Part shown: one piece after another, positions 19,210-57,006 of the stretch
How positions within the stretch are numbered: the stretch's first letter is position 1
How the letters are laid out: each line of letters starts with the position of its first letter
The notes under the pieces: generated by a model
What the model was told of the DNA's origin: nothing
The model's input: only the letters and a program-made list of their open reading frames with translations
Databases searched by the model: none
Made by a program: the position numbers and the translations under genes
NCBI GenBank assembly: GCA_017650945.1
Contig: JAGCDW010000015.1
Span: forward strand, 1-59,154
Length of the DNA: 59,154 nt
Direction: 5' to 3'
From: Alphaproteobacteria bacterium
GTDB taxonomy: Bacteria > Pseudomonadota > Alphaproteobacteria > Rs-D84

Positions 19210-19357
19210 CATCTCTGGAATAAGTTGTCATCGAATTTAGTAACTTCTACAACAAGATAACGGTATTTTGGAATTTTAAGCGTCCTATTTTGAAAGTGCA
19301 TTAACACCTATTCTTTTTTTCTTTTCAATGACCGAACATTTATGCTAAAATTCGACT

Positions 19358-19540
19358 GATGGTGGATGTTCCGTCATCGGGGTGTCAAGACCTCTTTTAG
19401 ACAGTGTCGGCGTAACCTGCGCCGACAGAAAACTCCAACCTTTATCGGTTGGAGGGTTGTGAATATATTGAATAAACACACAATTTCTGTCTAAATTGTC
19501 TTGAACCTCCAACCACCTAAGAAAGAAAAAGGTGGTTTTT
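19358..19540 (+). promoter_or_regulatory. structured 5' leader RNA, copy A (candidate riboswitch/attenuator)
   Basis: A -10-like TAAAAT (19346..19351) precedes three hairpins: 19358..19378, 19405..19427 and 19433..19454. The element AACCTCCAACC (19504..19514) can pair with the 3' arm of hairpin 3. The terminator is AACCACC-N13-GGTGGTT plus a T-run (19511..19540). The second copy is at 56615..56791(-). Confidence 0.65.
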
Positions 19541-19562
19541 AAAATTGTAAAAAGGAGGTTTT

Positions 19563-21077
19563 ATGTTTAAAAAAATATTTTTTGCGTTACTTGCGACATT
19601 GACGATAAAGATTGCCGTTGCCGACACGTGCCTTAGCAATCAAATGACATTGCCGGACGGTTCGTGCGTTGATGCAAAATTTTCCGTAACAACCACCAGT
19701 GATATGCCGGATAACACAACATTTAAATTTTACCTTTCGGCCCAAGGAACATTTTACATTGATTGGGGCGAAGGCAACAATACACCCGCCGAAATTATAC
19801 CGCACGATAACACAACCGAAACACTTTATTCACACACATACACAACCGGTGGCGAAAAAATAATTCGATTCGGTGGCGTCGCAACAAAGTATAAAAGCGG
19901 TTATAATAACACCATACGTTTCGGATACACTAGCACCGCGGATGATTCCACACCCCAATTTATTTCGGCAATCAATGGTTCATTGGGCGAAATGTTTCCA
20001 ACATTAGACACCACGTACAATAATATACCGGGTTTTTCCCATGCATTTGCACGCACCAAAATAGCAACGGTTCCCGAAACATTATTTTCCGGAATTCATG
20101 ACTCAACCCCATATATGTTTCAAGCCACATTTTCCTATTCAAGCATCTCTACAATTCCCGCAAACCTTTTTCGTGATATAACCGAACCAGCCCAGGGACT
20201 TTTTAACTCAACATTTATAGCAACAACATCATTACACACAATTCCATCAACATTATTCCACAATGTTCATGGTTCCGCAAACAACATGTTCCAAAATACA
20301 TTTAGGCAATCTGGTTTAACATCAATTCCCCCTGAATTATTCCAAACAATTACCGGTTCAGCAACTAACCTTTTTGATGCAACATTTTTGGGCTGTCGAA
20401 TAACATCAATTCCTGACAACCTTTTTCCCGGTATCACAAATGTGGGAACAAGGCAATTTGGTAACACTTTTTCTAGCAATTCATTGTTAACCGGATATAT
20501 TCCGCCATCACTTTTTTCCGGATTAAACAACAGTGGTTTAGACACAACAAACCTTATGCAAAATATATTCGCCAGTTGCCCTAACCTTGCCACCACATGC
20601 CCACCTGGGACGGTTCAATTTATAACCGGATACGAAGACTATTGGGGTGGCCATGTATCATGCGTTGAAGAAGATATGGTTTGCAATGCTGGACAATATT
20701 TACCGGCACATGGATACGAATGCACAACATGCCCACGCAATAACTATTGTCCTGGTGGCACATATCAATACAGCGAAAATCAAACATCCGGCCTTACGCA
20801 ATGCCCGAACTCTTTACAGTCCCCAATCGGAATGTCATCGGCCAATCAATGCGGACGCGTTTTACACCTTGGCGATGATGTCGTTTACCTGCACAGCACA
20901 AAAAAGACCCAACACGCATTACACATCGACATGGACGGCGACGGCACAGCGGACTTTTTCGGCAACATGACAACAACCGAAACACCGATGTCTTATGGCA
21001 CAACCAGGAAATTAAAAATATGGCTTAACAACACAACATATTTCGTCTATGACGACAGCGCTGAATTAAACGAATAA
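19563..21077 (+). CDS. secreted protein with LRR-like ~24-aa repeats and a Cys-rich ephrin-receptor/TNFR-like module
   Basis: SD is AAGGAGG. Signal peptide MFKKIFFALLATLTIKIAVA. Repeats follow the pattern ..F..TF....L.SIP..LF..I.G... The C-terminal module is CNAGQYLPAHGYECTTCPRNNYCPGGTY..C. Confidence 0.7.
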   Translation: MFKKIFFALLATLTIKIAVADTCLSNQMTLPDGSCVDAKFSVTTTSDMPDNTTFKFYLSAQGTFYIDWGEGNNTPAEIIPHDNTTETLYSHTYTTGGEKIIRFGGVATKYKSGYNNTIRFGYTSTADDSTPQFISAINGSLGEMFPTLDTTYNNIPGFSHAFARTKIATVPETLFSGIHDSTPYMFQATFSYSSISTIPANLFRDITEPAQGLFNSTFIATTSLHTIPSTLFHNVHGSANNMFQNTFRQSGLTSIPPELFQTITGSATNLFDATFLGCRITSIPDNLFPGITNVGTRQFGNTFSSNSLLTGYIPPSLFSGLNNSGLDTTNLMQNIFASCPNLATTCPPGTVQFITGYEDYWGGHVSCVEEDMVCNAGQYLPAHGYECTTCPRNNYCPGGTYQYSENQTSGLTQCPNSLQSPIGMSSANQCGRVLHLGDDVVYLHSTKKTQHALHIDMDGDGTADFFGNMTTTETPMSYGTTRKLKIWLNNTTYFVYDDSAELNE

Positions 21078-52229: not shown

Positions 52230-52532
52230 ATGAAGCAACAAGTGCTAAAAGCTTTGGCGAATCCGTCGCATTTATTCTATGTGCCATATACTTTGGCGGT
52301 GTTGAATTTTATGATTCAGTTCATTATTTTTATCATTTTATATACAATCGGTATGTTTATTTTCCCGGATAAAGTAAATGATTATTTAAATCCGCTATTT
52401 TTTATAATATCTGTGTGTATTGTCCATATGATTTTAGCCCATTATTCGCGGCGCGACCCGCAACTTGGACAAATTTTGATTGCTAAAATCAGAATGATAA
52501 GAAATAAAATTCCACGGAGACTTGCGGCATGA
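52230..52532 (+). CDS. virB3: type IV secretion protein VirB3
   Basis: 100 aa with two TM helices. Its N-terminus ..LKALANPSHLFYVPY.. resembles the VirB3 L.rP....GVP motif. Overlaps virB4 (ATGA). Confidence 0.65.
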   Translation: MKQQVLKALANPSHLFYVPYTLAVLNFMIQFIIFIILYTIGMFIFPDKVNDYLNPLFFIISVCIVHMILAHYSRRDPQLGQILIAKIRMIRNKIPRRLAA

Positions 52533-54946
52533 TACCTGAATTTTTCAAATATTTTGCCGGTAATGGGTTTTCTAATACTATAACACTAACTGTTATGGCA
52601 ATCGCGGTTATATTTGTGTTTTTAGTATTATTGATGTATATTCCAACTATTGTAAAACATGTTTTTCCAAAGTTTGGTTATAAACATTACTCTGAATATA
52701 TACCTTTTACAACTGTTTATACCGATAATTCAATTGAACTAAGTGATGGTTGTTTAATTCGTGTTTATTCAATCGCTGGTGTGCAAACCAGTATGCAAAC
52801 AGACGAGCAACGTGAAAAATTTCTTGACCTGCGTGCGCAGTTATTCAACCAAATCCACGACCCAAATATTGTGCTGCGATTTTTTACAACGCGTGACGCG
52901 GTTGCAGAAAATACGGACTATGAATTCGACCAACCTGTATTACAGAAAATTTACGACAAATGGCATTCCCAAGGGTTAAAGATATTTTTAAATAATTATT
53001 ATATTGTACTTTCTGTTCGTGGTGCGCATGCGCGTGATAAACTAAATCAGTATGGAAATTATATTGAATCGATACTTGCGCCATATAAACCAAAAATGCT
53101 TGAAAACAAATCTCGGGATAATATGGCAAAGTTTTTTGGTCGTATCTTATCACCGATTACAAAGCCAACGCCGGCGGTGTGTGATGATAAAATCACTGAA
53201 AACGCAACAGTTGATGATGTGGAATTTTTATCAAACGGAACAGTTAAATATATAAGTGGTAATTATGAATACTATGCGGCACTTTTATCTTTCCGTGCAG
53301 CACCAGATTATTTGGACGAAGATTTTTTTGATTCTGTGAATACGATTCAAACTGAAATGATTTGTATGAACGGATTCAAAATAATGAATTCCGCAGATGT
53401 AGAGGCGGTAATGCGCCAACGCCGCAGTGTTGCAAACAAAGAAAATGATTCAACCGAAGAACAAATATCAAGTGCGGAATCGGTCATGGATGAAAATGTT
53501 TCCGGAAACCAAACTCTTGTAAATTATTATCCGCTGTTTATGATATTTGCGAAAAGCGAAGCGGAATTAAAAGAACATGTTGATGAATTCAAAAAGATTT
53601 CTGCATCATTTGGCGTATCGCCAATCCAAGAAAGTTTCGCGACCAAGGTTTCATGGTTTTCAATAATACCTGGGTTTGATACATTCCCGCGGACTTTCAA
53701 AATGTTGTCGCGTGCGGCGGCAATCAGTGTTCCAATGTCGTCCGCACCACGCGGTATATCAAATTCTGATTGGGGTCCGGGGCCACTTGTTATATTCCCA
53801 ACGGCACAAGGCACACCGTATCAGTTTCAATTTCATGTGTCGGATAAACCGGCGGCGGTTGGACATACACTTACAATCGGTCCGACCGGTGGTGGTAAAA
53901 CAACATTGTTCTCGTTCCTTATTGCACAGTCAATGCGACATCAGAAATTAAAGGCATTTTTCTTTGATCGGAATAAAGGCGCAGAAATCTTTACACTTGC
54001 GACCGGTGGAAAATATATAACGATGCAAGGCAAAGAAAAAAATGAAACAAATTTCCTTGCACATCTGAACCCACTAAAAATGTCGGATACTGCGGCAAAC
54101 CGTGGATTTTTGCGGCGGTGGTTGGCGATGATTTCCGAACAATCTGACCCACTTTCCGAAGATGAAATTGCGCGCGCGGTTTCGGTGAATTTTGATTACT
54201 TGGTTGATAAAGACAGAATGTTGAAAAATTTATGGGAAAGTTGTTTTTCATCGTCCGGCAAAATGCGCGCCGCATTAAAGAAATGGGTTGACCCATTACA
54301 ATACGGCGACATATTTAATGAAGAAACGGATACGCTCGATTTGCAATCTCGTTTGACCACTTTTGATTTTACCGAAATTTTACAAGACCCCGTCCTTGCG
54401 CCCGCGGTGATATCATATATATTGCATAGGATAAATAACACAACTGTATCCGGCGGAAATCCTTCACTTATTATGATTGACGAAACAGCGCCTATGCTGG
54501 AAAATAAAATGTTTAGGGATAATTTTATCGCCGGTCTCCAAGAAGGACGCAAAAATCGCCAGGCATATATGGTCGCATTTCAACGCGCAAATGTTTTGGA
54601 TAAACTTGGAATTGGCGATGTTGTCCGTGGCCAGGCGCAAACGATTATGTTCTTCCGCAATCCGGCGGCGGATGCGGCGGACTATGAACATTGGAATTTG
54701 AATCCACTGGAAATGGCGTTCATCCAAGGCAAGGCCTACCCTAACCTAAAACGTGCGGTTTTATTGTCGCGCCCGGTCAATAATGAATCAGTGATTTTGA
54801 ATACTGAACTTGGGGGACTCGGCAGTTTACTAAAATTATTCGAATCAGGTCGTTCATCGGTTTTACTCGCCGAGGAACTTTATCGCCAATACGGTTCGGC
54901 GTTTGTTGCGGAATATTTAAAAAAACAAGGTGCAGGCGATATATAA
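52529..54946 (+). CDS. virB4: type IV secretion ATPase VirB4
   Basis: 805 aa. Walker A GPTGGGKTT, Walker B LIMIDETAPML, and a typical ..FFRNP.. C-terminal region. Confidence 0.9.
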   Translation: MIPEFFKYFAGNGFSNTITLTVMAIAVIFVFLVLLMYIPTIVKHVFPKFGYKHYSEYIPFTTVYTDNSIELSDGCLIRVYSIAGVQTSMQTDEQREKFLDLRAQLFNQIHDPNIVLRFFTTRDAVAENTDYEFDQPVLQKIYDKWHSQGLKIFLNNYYIVLSVRGAHARDKLNQYGNYIESILAPYKPKMLENKSRDNMAKFFGRILSPITKPTPAVCDDKITENATVDDVEFLSNGTVKYISGNYEYYAALLSFRAAPDYLDEDFFDSVNTIQTEMICMNGFKIMNSADVEAVMRQRRSVANKENDSTEEQISSAESVMDENVSGNQTLVNYYPLFMIFAKSEAELKEHVDEFKKISASFGVSPIQESFATKVSWFSIIPGFDTFPRTFKMLSRAAAISVPMSSAPRGISNSDWGPGPLVIFPTAQGTPYQFQFHVSDKPAAVGHTLTIGPTGGGKTTLFSFLIAQSMRHQKLKAFFFDRNKGAEIFTLATGGKYITMQGKEKNETNFLAHLNPLKMSDTAANRGFLRRWLAMISEQSDPLSEDEIARAVSVNFDYLVDKDRMLKNLWESCFSSSGKMRAALKKWVDPLQYGDIFNEETDTLDLQSRLTTFDFTEILQDPVLAPAVISYILHRINNTTVSGGNPSLIMIDETAPMLENKMFRDNFIAGLQEGRKNRQAYMVAFQRANVLDKLGIGDVVRGQAQTIMFFRNPAADAADYEHWNLNPLEMAFIQGKAYPNLKRAVLLSRPVNNESVILNTELGGLGSLLKLFESGRSSVLLAEELYRQYGSAFVAEYLKKQGAGDI

Positions 54947-54947
54947 T

Positions 54948-55580
54948 ATGTTAAAAAAAATTTTATTTTTTATTCTATTGCCTTTTGCAGTGTTCGCTGA
55001 TGATTGTGTGCAGTATAAAAAAACACCTTTTGTAAATATTAAAAATCCAGAATGGACGAAAACTGTTGAATTGTCCGATGACCCAATGGATGAATACAAT
55101 GGAAAATATTTTTCTTTCAAATTGCATGGAACAACCGAAACAAGTTTTATGGAAAAATATAATATCGATTTTAATGTTATTCCCGAACGCGATGGATACT
55201 GTGTGATTGTAAATGGTGTTGATGCAACCGTTGGTTATGAAAATTTTTTGGTTAAAATTGATAAATCGCATAAAAAAAATTCTTGTTCATATAACGCTGT
55301 TTTGAAACACGAAGAAAAACATATAGATGCATATTTATCGATATTAAATGATATGGAACCCGATATAAAAAACTCAGTTTTTAACGCGATGAATTCGATA
55401 ATGCCAATATACGCGCCCGACATAGAAAGCATAGATTTATTACTTGAAGACATGTATAAAAAACTTGAAAATCATCCTGAACTTGTTTTGCTTCATCAAA
55501 AAATAAATGCGGCCCAAGAAATTCGTAACAAACATATCGACCAAGACGAAAATAATTACGAATTAAAGCAATGTGAATAA
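54948..55580 (+). CDS. secreted protein with HExxH motif (possible DUF922-like zincin)
   Basis: Signal peptide MLKKILFFILLPFAVFA. HEEKH lies at ..AVLKHEEKHIDAY... Confidence 0.45.
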   Translation: MLKKILFFILLPFAVFADDCVQYKKTPFVNIKNPEWTKTVELSDDPMDEYNGKYFSFKLHGTTETSFMEKYNIDFNVIPERDGYCVIVNGVDATVGYENFLVKIDKSHKKNSCSYNAVLKHEEKHIDAYLSILNDMEPDIKNSVFNAMNSIMPIYAPDIESIDLLLEDMYKKLENHPELVLLHQKINAAQEIRNKHIDQDENNYELKQCE

Positions 55581-56614: not shown

Positions 56615-56791
56615 CAAAAAACCACCGAAATTCTTTCATGTGGTTGGAGGTTCAGAACTATAATGTGTTGAATAGTGGGCTTATTCTATATATTCACCGC
56701 CCTCCAACCACACCGGGCTGGAGGTGTTTTATGTCCCCACGGACAAACACATTCAAGGGTTCTGACACCCCATCGATGGAATTCCCATCGA
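56615..56791 (-). promoter_or_regulatory. structured 5' leader RNA, copy B (candidate riboswitch/attenuator)
   Basis: The sense strand aligns with 19358..19540. Shared blocks are GGGGTGTCA, GGTTGGAGGG..GTGAATATAT.GAATAA and GAACCTCCAACCAC. All three hairpins and the terminator (AACCAC..GTGGTT plus TTTTTT) are conserved with compensatory changes. Confidence 0.65.
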
Positions 56792-56834
56792 CACAGGTAT
56801 AATATCACAAAACCCAAATTGTTACAATAGAAAT

Positions 56835-56867
56835 ATTAGTAGAAAGTATTAGTGGTTAGTATAAGTG
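56835..56867 (+). repeat. GTTAGTGTAAGTG-family dispersed repeat, copy f
   Basis: ATTAGTAGAAAGTATTAGTGGTTAGTATAAGTG, 3 nt upstream of MITE copy 3. Confidence 0.6.
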
Positions 56868-56870
56868 CGA

Positions 56871-57006
56871 CGTCATCCCGGCGAAGGCCGGGATCCAGTG
56901 TGAGCGGCAACGAACACCTGCGTCGCAGACAATTTTATTATCACTGCGGGACAGTCAACCTTCGCCAAGGCTTCGGTTGATGGATCCCGCGCTTCTGCGG
57001 GATGAC
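56871..57006 (+). mobile_element. hairpin-ended miniature repeat (MITE-like), copy 3
   Basis: Starts CGTCATCCCGGCGAAGGCCGGGATCCAGTG and ends GGATCCCGCGCTTCTGCGGGATGAC. These are terminal inverted repeats, and each is itself a hairpin. Confidence 0.75.

Follow-up and report, generated by a model that had tools for sequence, protein, structure and literature searches.

The 59,154-nucleotide (nt) stretch analysed here (positions 1 to 59,154, forward strand, of contig JAGCDW010000015.1, assembly GCA_017650945.1; hereafter the window), which comes from an alphaproteobacterium of the GTDB lineage Rs-D84, carries two copies of a structured leader, copy A at 19354-19542 (+) and copy B at 56615-56796 (−). 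Based on the comparison of these copies with their homologues and on folding calculations, we conclude that the element is real and is probably a cis-acting, two-state transcription-attenuation leader related to the Rfam family sRNA-Xcc1 (RF02221), in which read-through would be brought about by a factor that stabilises the antiterminating fold (state A) relative to the terminating fold (state T). In both copies a promoter is followed by the structured leader, an intrinsic terminator, a Shine-Dalgarno sequence (SD) and a gene; as expected of a cis-acting attenuator, promoter, leader, stem-loop with U run, SD and open reading frame (ORF) lie on one strand, and the alternative pairing overlaps the 5' arm of the terminator. 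The two copies are 76% identical over ~260 columns, and their folding z-scores relative to shuffled sequences were −7.75 (copy A) and −3.33 (copy B). A covariance model (R1) built from 49 diverse copies found 120 copies across 98 sources; in the window it found only copies A and B, with scores of 137 and 157 bits, and the rest of the window yielded nothing better than E=0.04. The parts of the two cassettes are as follows.

19322..19351 (+): promoter of copy A, TTTTCA, 18-nt spacer and TG-extended −10 TAAAAT
19358..19378 (+): P0, the 5'-terminal hairpin GAUGGUGG/CCGUCAUC; all 8 pairs change on both sides among the 120 homologues
19379..19394 (+): 5' element GGGG-U-G-UCAAGAC-CUC; 5' strand of P1 in state T, a:a' hairpin GGGG/CCUC in state A
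19398..19404 (+): 5' strand of P2, UAGACAG; supported by covariation and by alignment-free complementarity
19405..19427 (+): P2a hairpin, whose length varies; it reaches ~60 nt in some homologues, and others lack it
19433..19455 (+): P3 hairpin CUCCAACC/GGUUGGAG(G), whose 3' arm (19447-19455) doubles as the antiterminator 5' strand
19456..19483 (+): P4 module, a short closing stem around the invariant loop GUGAAUAUAUUGAAUAA (19459-19475), then the C-R-C triplet (19479-19481)
19481..19498 (+): P5, CAAUU/AAUUG, enclosing the 3' strand of P2, CUGUCUA (19487-19493)
19498..19514 (+): 3' switch segment, in which GUCUUGA-ACCUC serves state T as the 3' strand of P1
19506-19514 (+): CCUCCAACC, the antiterminator 3' strand in state A; its AACC overlaps the terminator 5' arm
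19511..19540 (+): intrinsic terminator AACCACCU-(11-nt loop)-AGGUGGUU and U run
19554..21077 (+): SD GGAGG (19554-19558) and a gene of 504 amino acids with its ATG at 19563
56799..56827 (−): promoter of copy B, TTGTAA, 17-nt spacer and TG-extended TATTAT
56615..56796 (−): leader copy B, with parts as in copy A; its 3' domain (56634-56709) aligns to RF02221
55630..56583 (−): gene of copy B, 317 amino acids, with a signal peptide and a Cys-rich C-terminus

Two alternative folds of the leader

An earlier note on this DNA, made from its sequence alone, had described three hairpins joined by conserved blocks and followed by an antiterminator/terminator pair. The hairpins lie where it placed them (GATGGTGG/CCGTCATC, 19358-19378; TGTCGGCG/CGCCGACA, 19405-19427; CTCCAACC/GGTTGGAG, 19433-19454), as do the conserved block GTGAATATATTGAATAA (19459-19475), the downstream segment AACCTCCAACCACC (19504-19517), the terminator AACCACCT...AGGTGGTT with its T run (19511-19540) and the −10 TAAAAT (19346-19351), which falls within a TG-extended promoter match (19322-19351). 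The −35 and −10 elements of the homologues align at a fixed distance. It had also pointed to the second copy, which indeed retains the helices with other sequences and has a G-U pair in hairpin 3. Its list of helices was correct as far as it went, and lacked P2 (19398-19404 with 19487-19493), P5 and the a:a' pairing of the alternative fold; GGGGTGTCA, taken for a single-stranded joiner, is actually the 5' strand of the long-range helix P1, whose partner is GTCTTGA-ACCTC at 19498-19509.

State T consists of the long-range helices P1 and P2, together with P0, the P3 hairpin, a short P4 and the terminator. In the minimum free energy (MFE) fold, P1 pairs GGGGUGUCAAGAC with GUCUUGAACCUC and P2 pairs UAGACAG with CUGUCUA, and the two helices close a multi-branch loop, inside which lie the conserved block and hairpins 2 and 3. 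P1 and P2 co-vary already between copies A and B. Among the 120 homologues 91.9% of the state T cells were paired, compared with at most 46% in slid controls, and 40 of the 44 pairs showed changes on both sides. The 91.9% count was made on an alignment fitted to the structure; when it was repeated on a plain, structure-agnostic MAFFT alignment, P1b, P3 and the terminator held. P2 was examined by an alignment-free test, in which the median length of the longest complementary run was 8 nt for the true partner, as against 5 nt when partners were permuted.

State A is a three-way junction. Its closing helix is the antiterminator, formed by the P3 3' arm and the downstream CCUCCAACC, and it encloses P4 and P5; this arrangement, AT[P4,P5], is exactly what RNAalifold returned de novo from the MAFFT alignment. 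The antiterminator was 96.9% paired, with 11-17 compensatory cells at each of its three variable pairs. Because the antiterminator pairs co-vary, the P3 5' arm and the downstream segment duplicate each other, and these two change together with the P3 3' arm (AACC, UGAC, AAUCC and others). This three-way covariation bears out the proposal of the earlier note that antiterminator and terminator are mutually exclusive, and it argues for selection on both folds. Two P3 variants occur within one metagenome-assembled genome (MAG; JAWPOC01, L077 versus L080), and therefore the partner is in cis and a shared trans partner for that helix is ruled out. P5 brackets the 3' strand of P2, so that P5 and P2 are mutually exclusive as well, and its pair 362/383 is UA in 78, AU in 29 and CG in 4 copies. 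The local a:a' pairing (GGGG/CCCY), which has the P1b strand as its hairpin loop, varies at pair 48/62 (GC75/GU18/AU15).

A further covariation fits neither simple fold. Column 52, a Y (U19383, of GGGG-Y-GU), co-varies in Watson-Crick fashion with column 360, an R (A19480, of the C-R-C triplet), with 58 UA and 36 CG, and the homologues L011 and L074 differ essentially at these two columns alone. The Y52:R360 pair would cross P2 in state T and stack on the a:a' hairpin in state A, which is suggestive of a pseudoknot bringing the 5' hairpin onto the junction; since R360 is correlated with N288 too, shared ancestry may add to the signal. Since R360 co-varies with Y52 and N288, P4 as initially drawn (GUG/CRC) was replaced by G291:C313 and N289:N317.

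Several other readings of the leader were discarded. A mutual-information scan showed no partner for the P4 loop in the P0 or P2a loops or in other columns, and the loop palindrome AAUAUAUU has a variable position as its outer base and was dropped as a dimerisation site. A leader peptide (GGAGG-N3-GUG, MNILNK...) was rejected, its codon 4 being UUG, UCG or UAG according to the variable loop base and the length of its ORF not being conserved. An internal promoter or sigma-dependent pause in the conserved block, where TTGAAT..TATAGT resembles a promoter, was rejected on account of the shift of P5 to GATTG/AATTG through RNA covariation. T-box leaders gave no Rfam match, and the gene content is unrelated to aminoacyl-tRNA genes. 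As a separate observation, hairpin 3 read on the minus strand (19433-19454; CTCCAACC..GGTTGGAG followed by TTTT, the complement of the conserved A-rich linker) resembles an intrinsic terminator, and the leader might also terminate antisense transcription.

To compare the two states, each fold was forced in ViennaRNA on 119 copies. State T was the more stable one, its median advantage being 7.6 kcal/mol while the terminator 3' arm is still missing and 11.1 kcal/mol for the complete leader; the computed default would therefore be termination.

Distribution and relationship to sRNA-Xcc1

A pattern scan of the genome collection with GGAGGGNNGTGAATATATNGAATAA gave at least 118 matches, almost all in Candidatus Enterousia or in MAGs of uncultured gut Alphaproteobacteria. 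Several copies were present per MAG, and some MAGs, with genomes of less than 1 Mb, contained at least 6-7. This lineage corresponds to the GTDB order Rs-D84, whose genomes are below 1 Mb and lack the tricarboxylic acid cycle and respiration (PMC12306168). The Enterousia form had no match in the phage, plasmid and IMG/VR collections, and literature searches on the loop sequence and on riboswitches in Rs-D84 found nothing. Eighteen of the 120 copies lack the exact search pattern and are therefore free of ascertainment bias; they still keep a loop of approximately YGAAUAUAUnGAAUAAG.

In every case the element has the orientation of an SD and start codon 12-60 nt downstream of it. Among 93 non-redundant first downstream ORFs, ~15-18 encode XRE-type helix-turn-helix (HTH) proteins and ~60 belong to no family, most of these having signal peptides. 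The others include four Flg_new proteins (Listeria-Bacteroides repeat), two PLDc_2 proteins (phospholipase D (PLD) nucleases), two Ephrin-receptor-like Cys-rich proteins, and single cases of an outer membrane protein beta-barrel, a YadA anchor, HsdM, an ABC exporter and a UvrD helicase. In summary, the set is made up of XRE regulators, proteins that are secreted or Cys-rich, and a small number of defence genes. The 504-residue product downstream of copy A had been described as a secreted leucine-rich repeat (LRR) and Cys-rich protein; this description is weakly supported, the product having a signal peptide, a Cys-rich C-terminus and a weak LRR-like region whose best match is a designed LRR protein at E=1e-3, with no Pfam or NCBIfam match. 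The 317-residue product of copy B is unrelated to it and gave no family match.

Some copies depart from the standard cassette. Tandem cassettes, each with its own promoter, were seen in L036 (5564-6155, −), where three complete ones stand head to tail before one XRE-like gene and the first terminator, which is degenerate, runs into the next promoter, and also in L101 and L046. Copies that consist of the 3' half only (antiterminator junction and terminator) and have their own promoter occur in L020 (2782-3142, −), L041 (6179-6357, −) and L042, in tandem upstream of a 64-residue protein; these may be natural always-on or sRNA-only forms. Class II leaders (L009:1627-1804, −; L071:5698-5889, +; L024:1652-1872, +) have in common with class I, to which the window copies belong, the scaffold of 5' element, P2, three-way P3/antiterminator and terminator. 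In class II the 17-nt loop is swapped for a long helix, UAUAYAAYA, a small hairpin and AAAR. Class II stands closest to Rfam sRNA-Xcc1, which suggests that the P4 position is an exchangeable module.

The earlier note could match the leader to no known riboswitch and had named a significant hit to a known Rfam family as evidence against its proposal. At gathering thresholds an Rfam scan of the whole window returned tRNAs only, in agreement with the note; in permissive scans of small regions, matches to RF02221 were found below the gathering threshold of 53 bits, so that the known family appeared without reaching significance by that standard. With the full model, and with E-values that refer to search spaces of 141-151 nt, the class II copies L024 and L009 scored 44.7 bits (E=2.6e-7) and 33.3 bits (E=1.4e-4), and copy B of the window scored 25.3 bits (E=0.01 for 141 nt). 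The alignments span model positions 1-87. Larger Rfam searches lose these matches to speed filters, and only scans of at most 300 nt reveal the similarity.

sRNA-Xcc1 is an 88-nt RNA of X. campestris whose independent accumulation was reported for Xcc 8004 only (PMC2996969). It has been catalogued since 2010-2011 and is annotated as a trans-acting small RNA (sRNA) in many genomes, including Shiga toxin (Stx) phages. Its known settings are integron cassettes of Xanthomonas, islands of Xylella, and APSE and Stx prophages. It lies upstream of symE in integron cassettes (10.1101/2025.06.18.660453) and upstream of an ORF6N gene in APSE phages, and Xylella has seven copies, five of them in tandem, adjoining c4 and isrK RNAs (PMC12189769). 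The three-way junction of RF02221, an outer helix enclosing two hairpins, was found in the Enterousia leaders, and every helix has its counterpart: the outer helix is the antiterminator here, the first hairpin (AUACAAUA-[CCCGAAAGGG]-GAAUAA) is P4, with the internal loop AUACAAUA..GAAUAA as the P4 loop, the second hairpin is P5, and the UUGAGC-like linker UUUUGAGC is the 3' strand of P1b. The distal CCC-GAAA-GGG stem of sRNA-Xcc1 is lost in class I, leaving a 17-nt loop that keeps GAAUAUAUnGAAUAA; of the loop and stem, class II keeps UAUAYAAYA together with the small hairpin and AAAR. Both forms stand upstream of a gene on the same strand and occur in multiple and tandem copies (in Xylella for sRNA-Xcc1). 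They differ in that the Rfam model and published work deal with the 88-nt 3' domain only, treated as a trans-acting sRNA, whereas here a terminator hairpin is added, and in that the Enterousia form is chromosomal and precedes genes for surface proteins and XRE regulators rather than antirepressors or symE.

The proposed link draws on the same family having been the sole sensible match three times, on the helix-for-helix correspondence (alignment A5) and on loci in E. coli. When the Rfam consensus of sRNA-Xcc1 was used as a BLAST query, 85 of 5426 genomes were matched, which led to the E. coli examples, and plasmids gave one partial match. The E. coli loci belong to prophages, where a BRO-N or AntA/AntB antirepressor gene follows after 45-75 nt, and the 205-nt leader recurs between antA and antB in Stx2-converting phages. 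In the E. coli leaders the linker UUUUGAGC has its complement in the loop of the hairpin GGUG-CUCAAAA-CACC, the P5 loop has its complement in UUGCAAAG, and CACCCGAC is a copy of the 3' strand of the outer helix; the complementarities a:a' loop/P1b, P2/P5 loop and P3/outer helix are thus those of Enterousia, in unrelated sequences. The MFE folds of these leaders resemble state T (z = −4.65 and −4.18). In the nin region of phages Nil2 (L124; AJ413274, 8919-9163) and P13374 (L125), the full two-domain leader separates antA from antB. The only annotation given to a part of it is 'promoter', and P13374 has small ORFs annotated over it; the annotations likely conceal an RNA element.

These comparisons lead us to regard the state A junction as a divergent homologue of sRNA-Xcc1, the 3' half of the leader being its distant relative, and the element as a 5'-extended, lineage-expanded variant of that family and not a wholly new riboswitch class. 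The two-domain switch appears to be a property of the family beyond Enterousia, and the annotation of sRNA-Xcc1 as a trans-acting sRNA looks incomplete; a literature search found the two-domain switch in this family nowhere described.

With regard to their surroundings, copy A has aspS as its divergent neighbour and copy B has dnaG immediately upstream; a gene for a VirB4/TrbE-type type IV secretion ATPase (52529-54946, +) and a 216-residue ORF (54930-55580, +) converge with the copy B gene. Two further kinds of short repeat between genes are found near leaders of this lineage (window 56845-56905, upstream of the copy B promoter; L016, L087, L019 and L105): the palindrome GGATCCCGGCCTTCGCCGGGATGAC, which is GC-rich and resembles repetitive extragenic palindromes, and runs of TAGTGGTTAGT-like heptamers.

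Proposed mechanism and competing explanations

In the proposed mechanism, the 5' clamp domain would pair strand by strand with the 3' domain in state T: P1 would join GGGGyGU-NNNNN to N'N'N'N'N'-AACCUCC, P2 would form, P3 would sequester GGUUGGAGG locally, and AACCACC would be left free for the terminator, turning the gene off. In state A the 3' domain would fold alone, with GGUUGGAGG pairing to the downstream CCUCCAACC as the antiterminator around P4 and P5 and the 5' element folding back as the a:a' hairpin; the terminator would then be without its 5' arm and polymerase would read through. Read-through would need stabilisation of state A, or removal or blocking of the 5' clamp. We envisage a conserved factor that binds the invariant A/U-rich P4 loop or the junction and stabilises state A, which would make the leader an ON switch. 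The factor probably recognises the invariant loop GAAUAUAUnGAAUAA, and it could be, as we tentatively suggest, a conserved cellular RNA-binding protein or RNase. A ubiquitous protein of this kind is favoured because the element occurs in phages, integrons and distant hosts with cargo of the conflict or surface type, and because the conserved part is one A/U-rich single-stranded stretch. That the 3' half may be a self-sufficient unit fits the 3'-half-only variants and the mapped 88-nt Xanthomonas RNA, which begins at the outer helix.

A number of points weigh against this interpretation. No effector has been identified, the support for switching is computational, and the calculated gap of 8-11 kcal/mol is large for a single binding event, so that kinetic control or RNA processing may be needed. 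Most copies were found by an exact 22-base pattern that includes the loop, and conservation of the loop rests mainly on the 18 pattern-independent copies. All RF02221 scores are below the gathering threshold, that of copy B would not be significant window-wide, and a permissive Rfam scan of 500 nt around copy A gave noise only, with no RF02221 match at E≤10. R1 does not detect the E. coli sRNA-Xcc1 loci, and homology therefore rests on the Rfam model and the shared architecture. Lastly, the literature calls sRNA-Xcc1 trans-acting and HrpG/HrpX-dependent.

If the element were an ON-type riboswitch for a small molecule or second messenger, the three-way junction with its conserved loop would be the aptamer, the ligand would lock the antiterminator and the 5' clamp would sharpen the off state. 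The multi-helix junction, the classical expression platform and the tandem or multiple copies are in keeping with such a switch, the isolated long-range covariation Y52:R360 hints at tertiary structure, and the swapped P4 modules suggest an exchangeable sensor. However, the 93 downstream ORFs share no metabolic theme (synthesis, transport or use of one compound) by which a riboswitch might be recognised; the genes encode secreted proteins, XRE regulators, HsdM and PLD nucleases here, and antirepressors or SymE in other hosts. Moreover, the conserved unpaired nucleotides form one contiguous A/U-rich loop instead of being scattered over the junctions, and Rfam scans matched no known aptamer; we consider a riboswitch of this type plausible, if rather unlikely. 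A different kind of control would need no external ligand: the 3' domain, freed by termination, processing or an internal promoter, might affect, in trans, the 5' clamp of transcripts still emerging from that locus, contacting it through the P5 loop and linker and setting the balance between termination and read-through, in the manner of c4 RNA. The three complementary segments resemble a1/a'/a2 of P1/P7 c4, the clamp is directed, like kissing antisense RNAs, at a hairpin loop and a linker, an 88-nt sRNA-Xcc1 RNA accumulates in Xanthomonas, sRNA-Xcc1 adjoins c4 and isrK RNAs in Xylella, and 3'-half-only variants have their own promoter. Yet the Enterousia P3 loop, at 4-8 nt, is too small for an internal promoter, the conservation of the P4 loop across hosts would be left unexplained, and the Rfam matches were weak (c4-a1b1, 24.6 bits, E=0.054, in L015; isrK, 14 bits, E=0.45); in our judgement this self-specific control is conceivable but improbable.

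It is very improbable that the element is solely the gene of a trans-acting sRNA, with no role in cis for the downstream gene. Rfam does give its type as 'Gene; sRNA' and papers list trans targets, but those lists are predictions, the published contexts are also upstream of a gene, and the co-orientation with an SD and start codon at 12-60 nt and the overlap of terminator and alternative pairing speak for a function in cis. A DNA operator or a selfish repeat resembling a miniature inverted-repeat transposable element, without any RNA function, could account for the near-palindrome TGAATA/TATTGA, for the ~18% of copies that precede XRE-type HTH genes and for the multiple copies; it would not account for compensatory changes that keep the RNA helices as the sequences diverge, even within one genome, and the spacing of block and promoter differs by ~60 nt among copies, terminal inverted repeats of conserved sequence are absent, and the Enterousia form was unmatched in the mobile-element collections searched. 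We give this explanation hardly any credence, and retain the two-state attenuation leader as the preferred interpretation.

The attenuation leader proposed here shares features with several known systems. In c4 RNA, an antirepressor leader, a middle segment is complementary to upstream and downstream copies of the same sequence, and the specificity co-varies three ways. The Enterousia leader resembles the P1/P7 c4 antisense RNA with its a1b1/a2b2 sites (RF01695, RF03163) and the related IsrK in both respects; unlike c4, which represses icd/ant translation in trans after processing by RNase P, the pairing here would control an intrinsic terminator in cis, and the c4/IsrK models (RF01695, RF01394, RF03163) gave no significant Rfam match. 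As in ON-type transcriptional switches with a three-way-junction aptamer, such as the pbuE adenine switch, and in three-tier attenuators (trp leader, PyrR and T-box), the closing helix of the junction shares its 3' strand with the 5' arm of the terminator, and there is an upstream 'anti-antiterminator' layer and termination by default. The leader differs from these in that no ligand, protein, tRNA or leader peptide was found, no sequence or Rfam similarity to them was seen, and the regulon is not metabolic.

Implications for Enterousia and the sRNA-Xcc1 family

The covariation would give sRNA-Xcc1 a mechanism, that of the antiterminator half of a bistable cis-acting leader whose 5' clamp is absent from the Rfam model. 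One could go further and suppose that the whole family is misannotated, with the copies before antirepressor genes of Stx-converting phages and before symE in integrons included. It would then be the sensing part of a hitherto unrecognised riboswitch-like attenuator of two domains, which answers one Proteobacteria-wide signal (a ligand or a core RNA-binding factor) and was domesticated in Enterousia/Rs-D84 as the main regulator of the surface proteome of a bacterium whose genome is below 1 Mb, a supposition that we regard as doubtful. The E. coli and Stx-phage systems are genetically tractable, so that direct testing is possible, and the three-way covariation provides a clear natural case of alternative pairing that would be useful for methods of RNA-switch detection. 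The Enterousia lineage has multiplied the whole cassette ahead of genes for surface or secreted proteins and XRE regulators, which suggests RNA-based control of the interaction with a host or partner in organisms where protein regulators are scarce.

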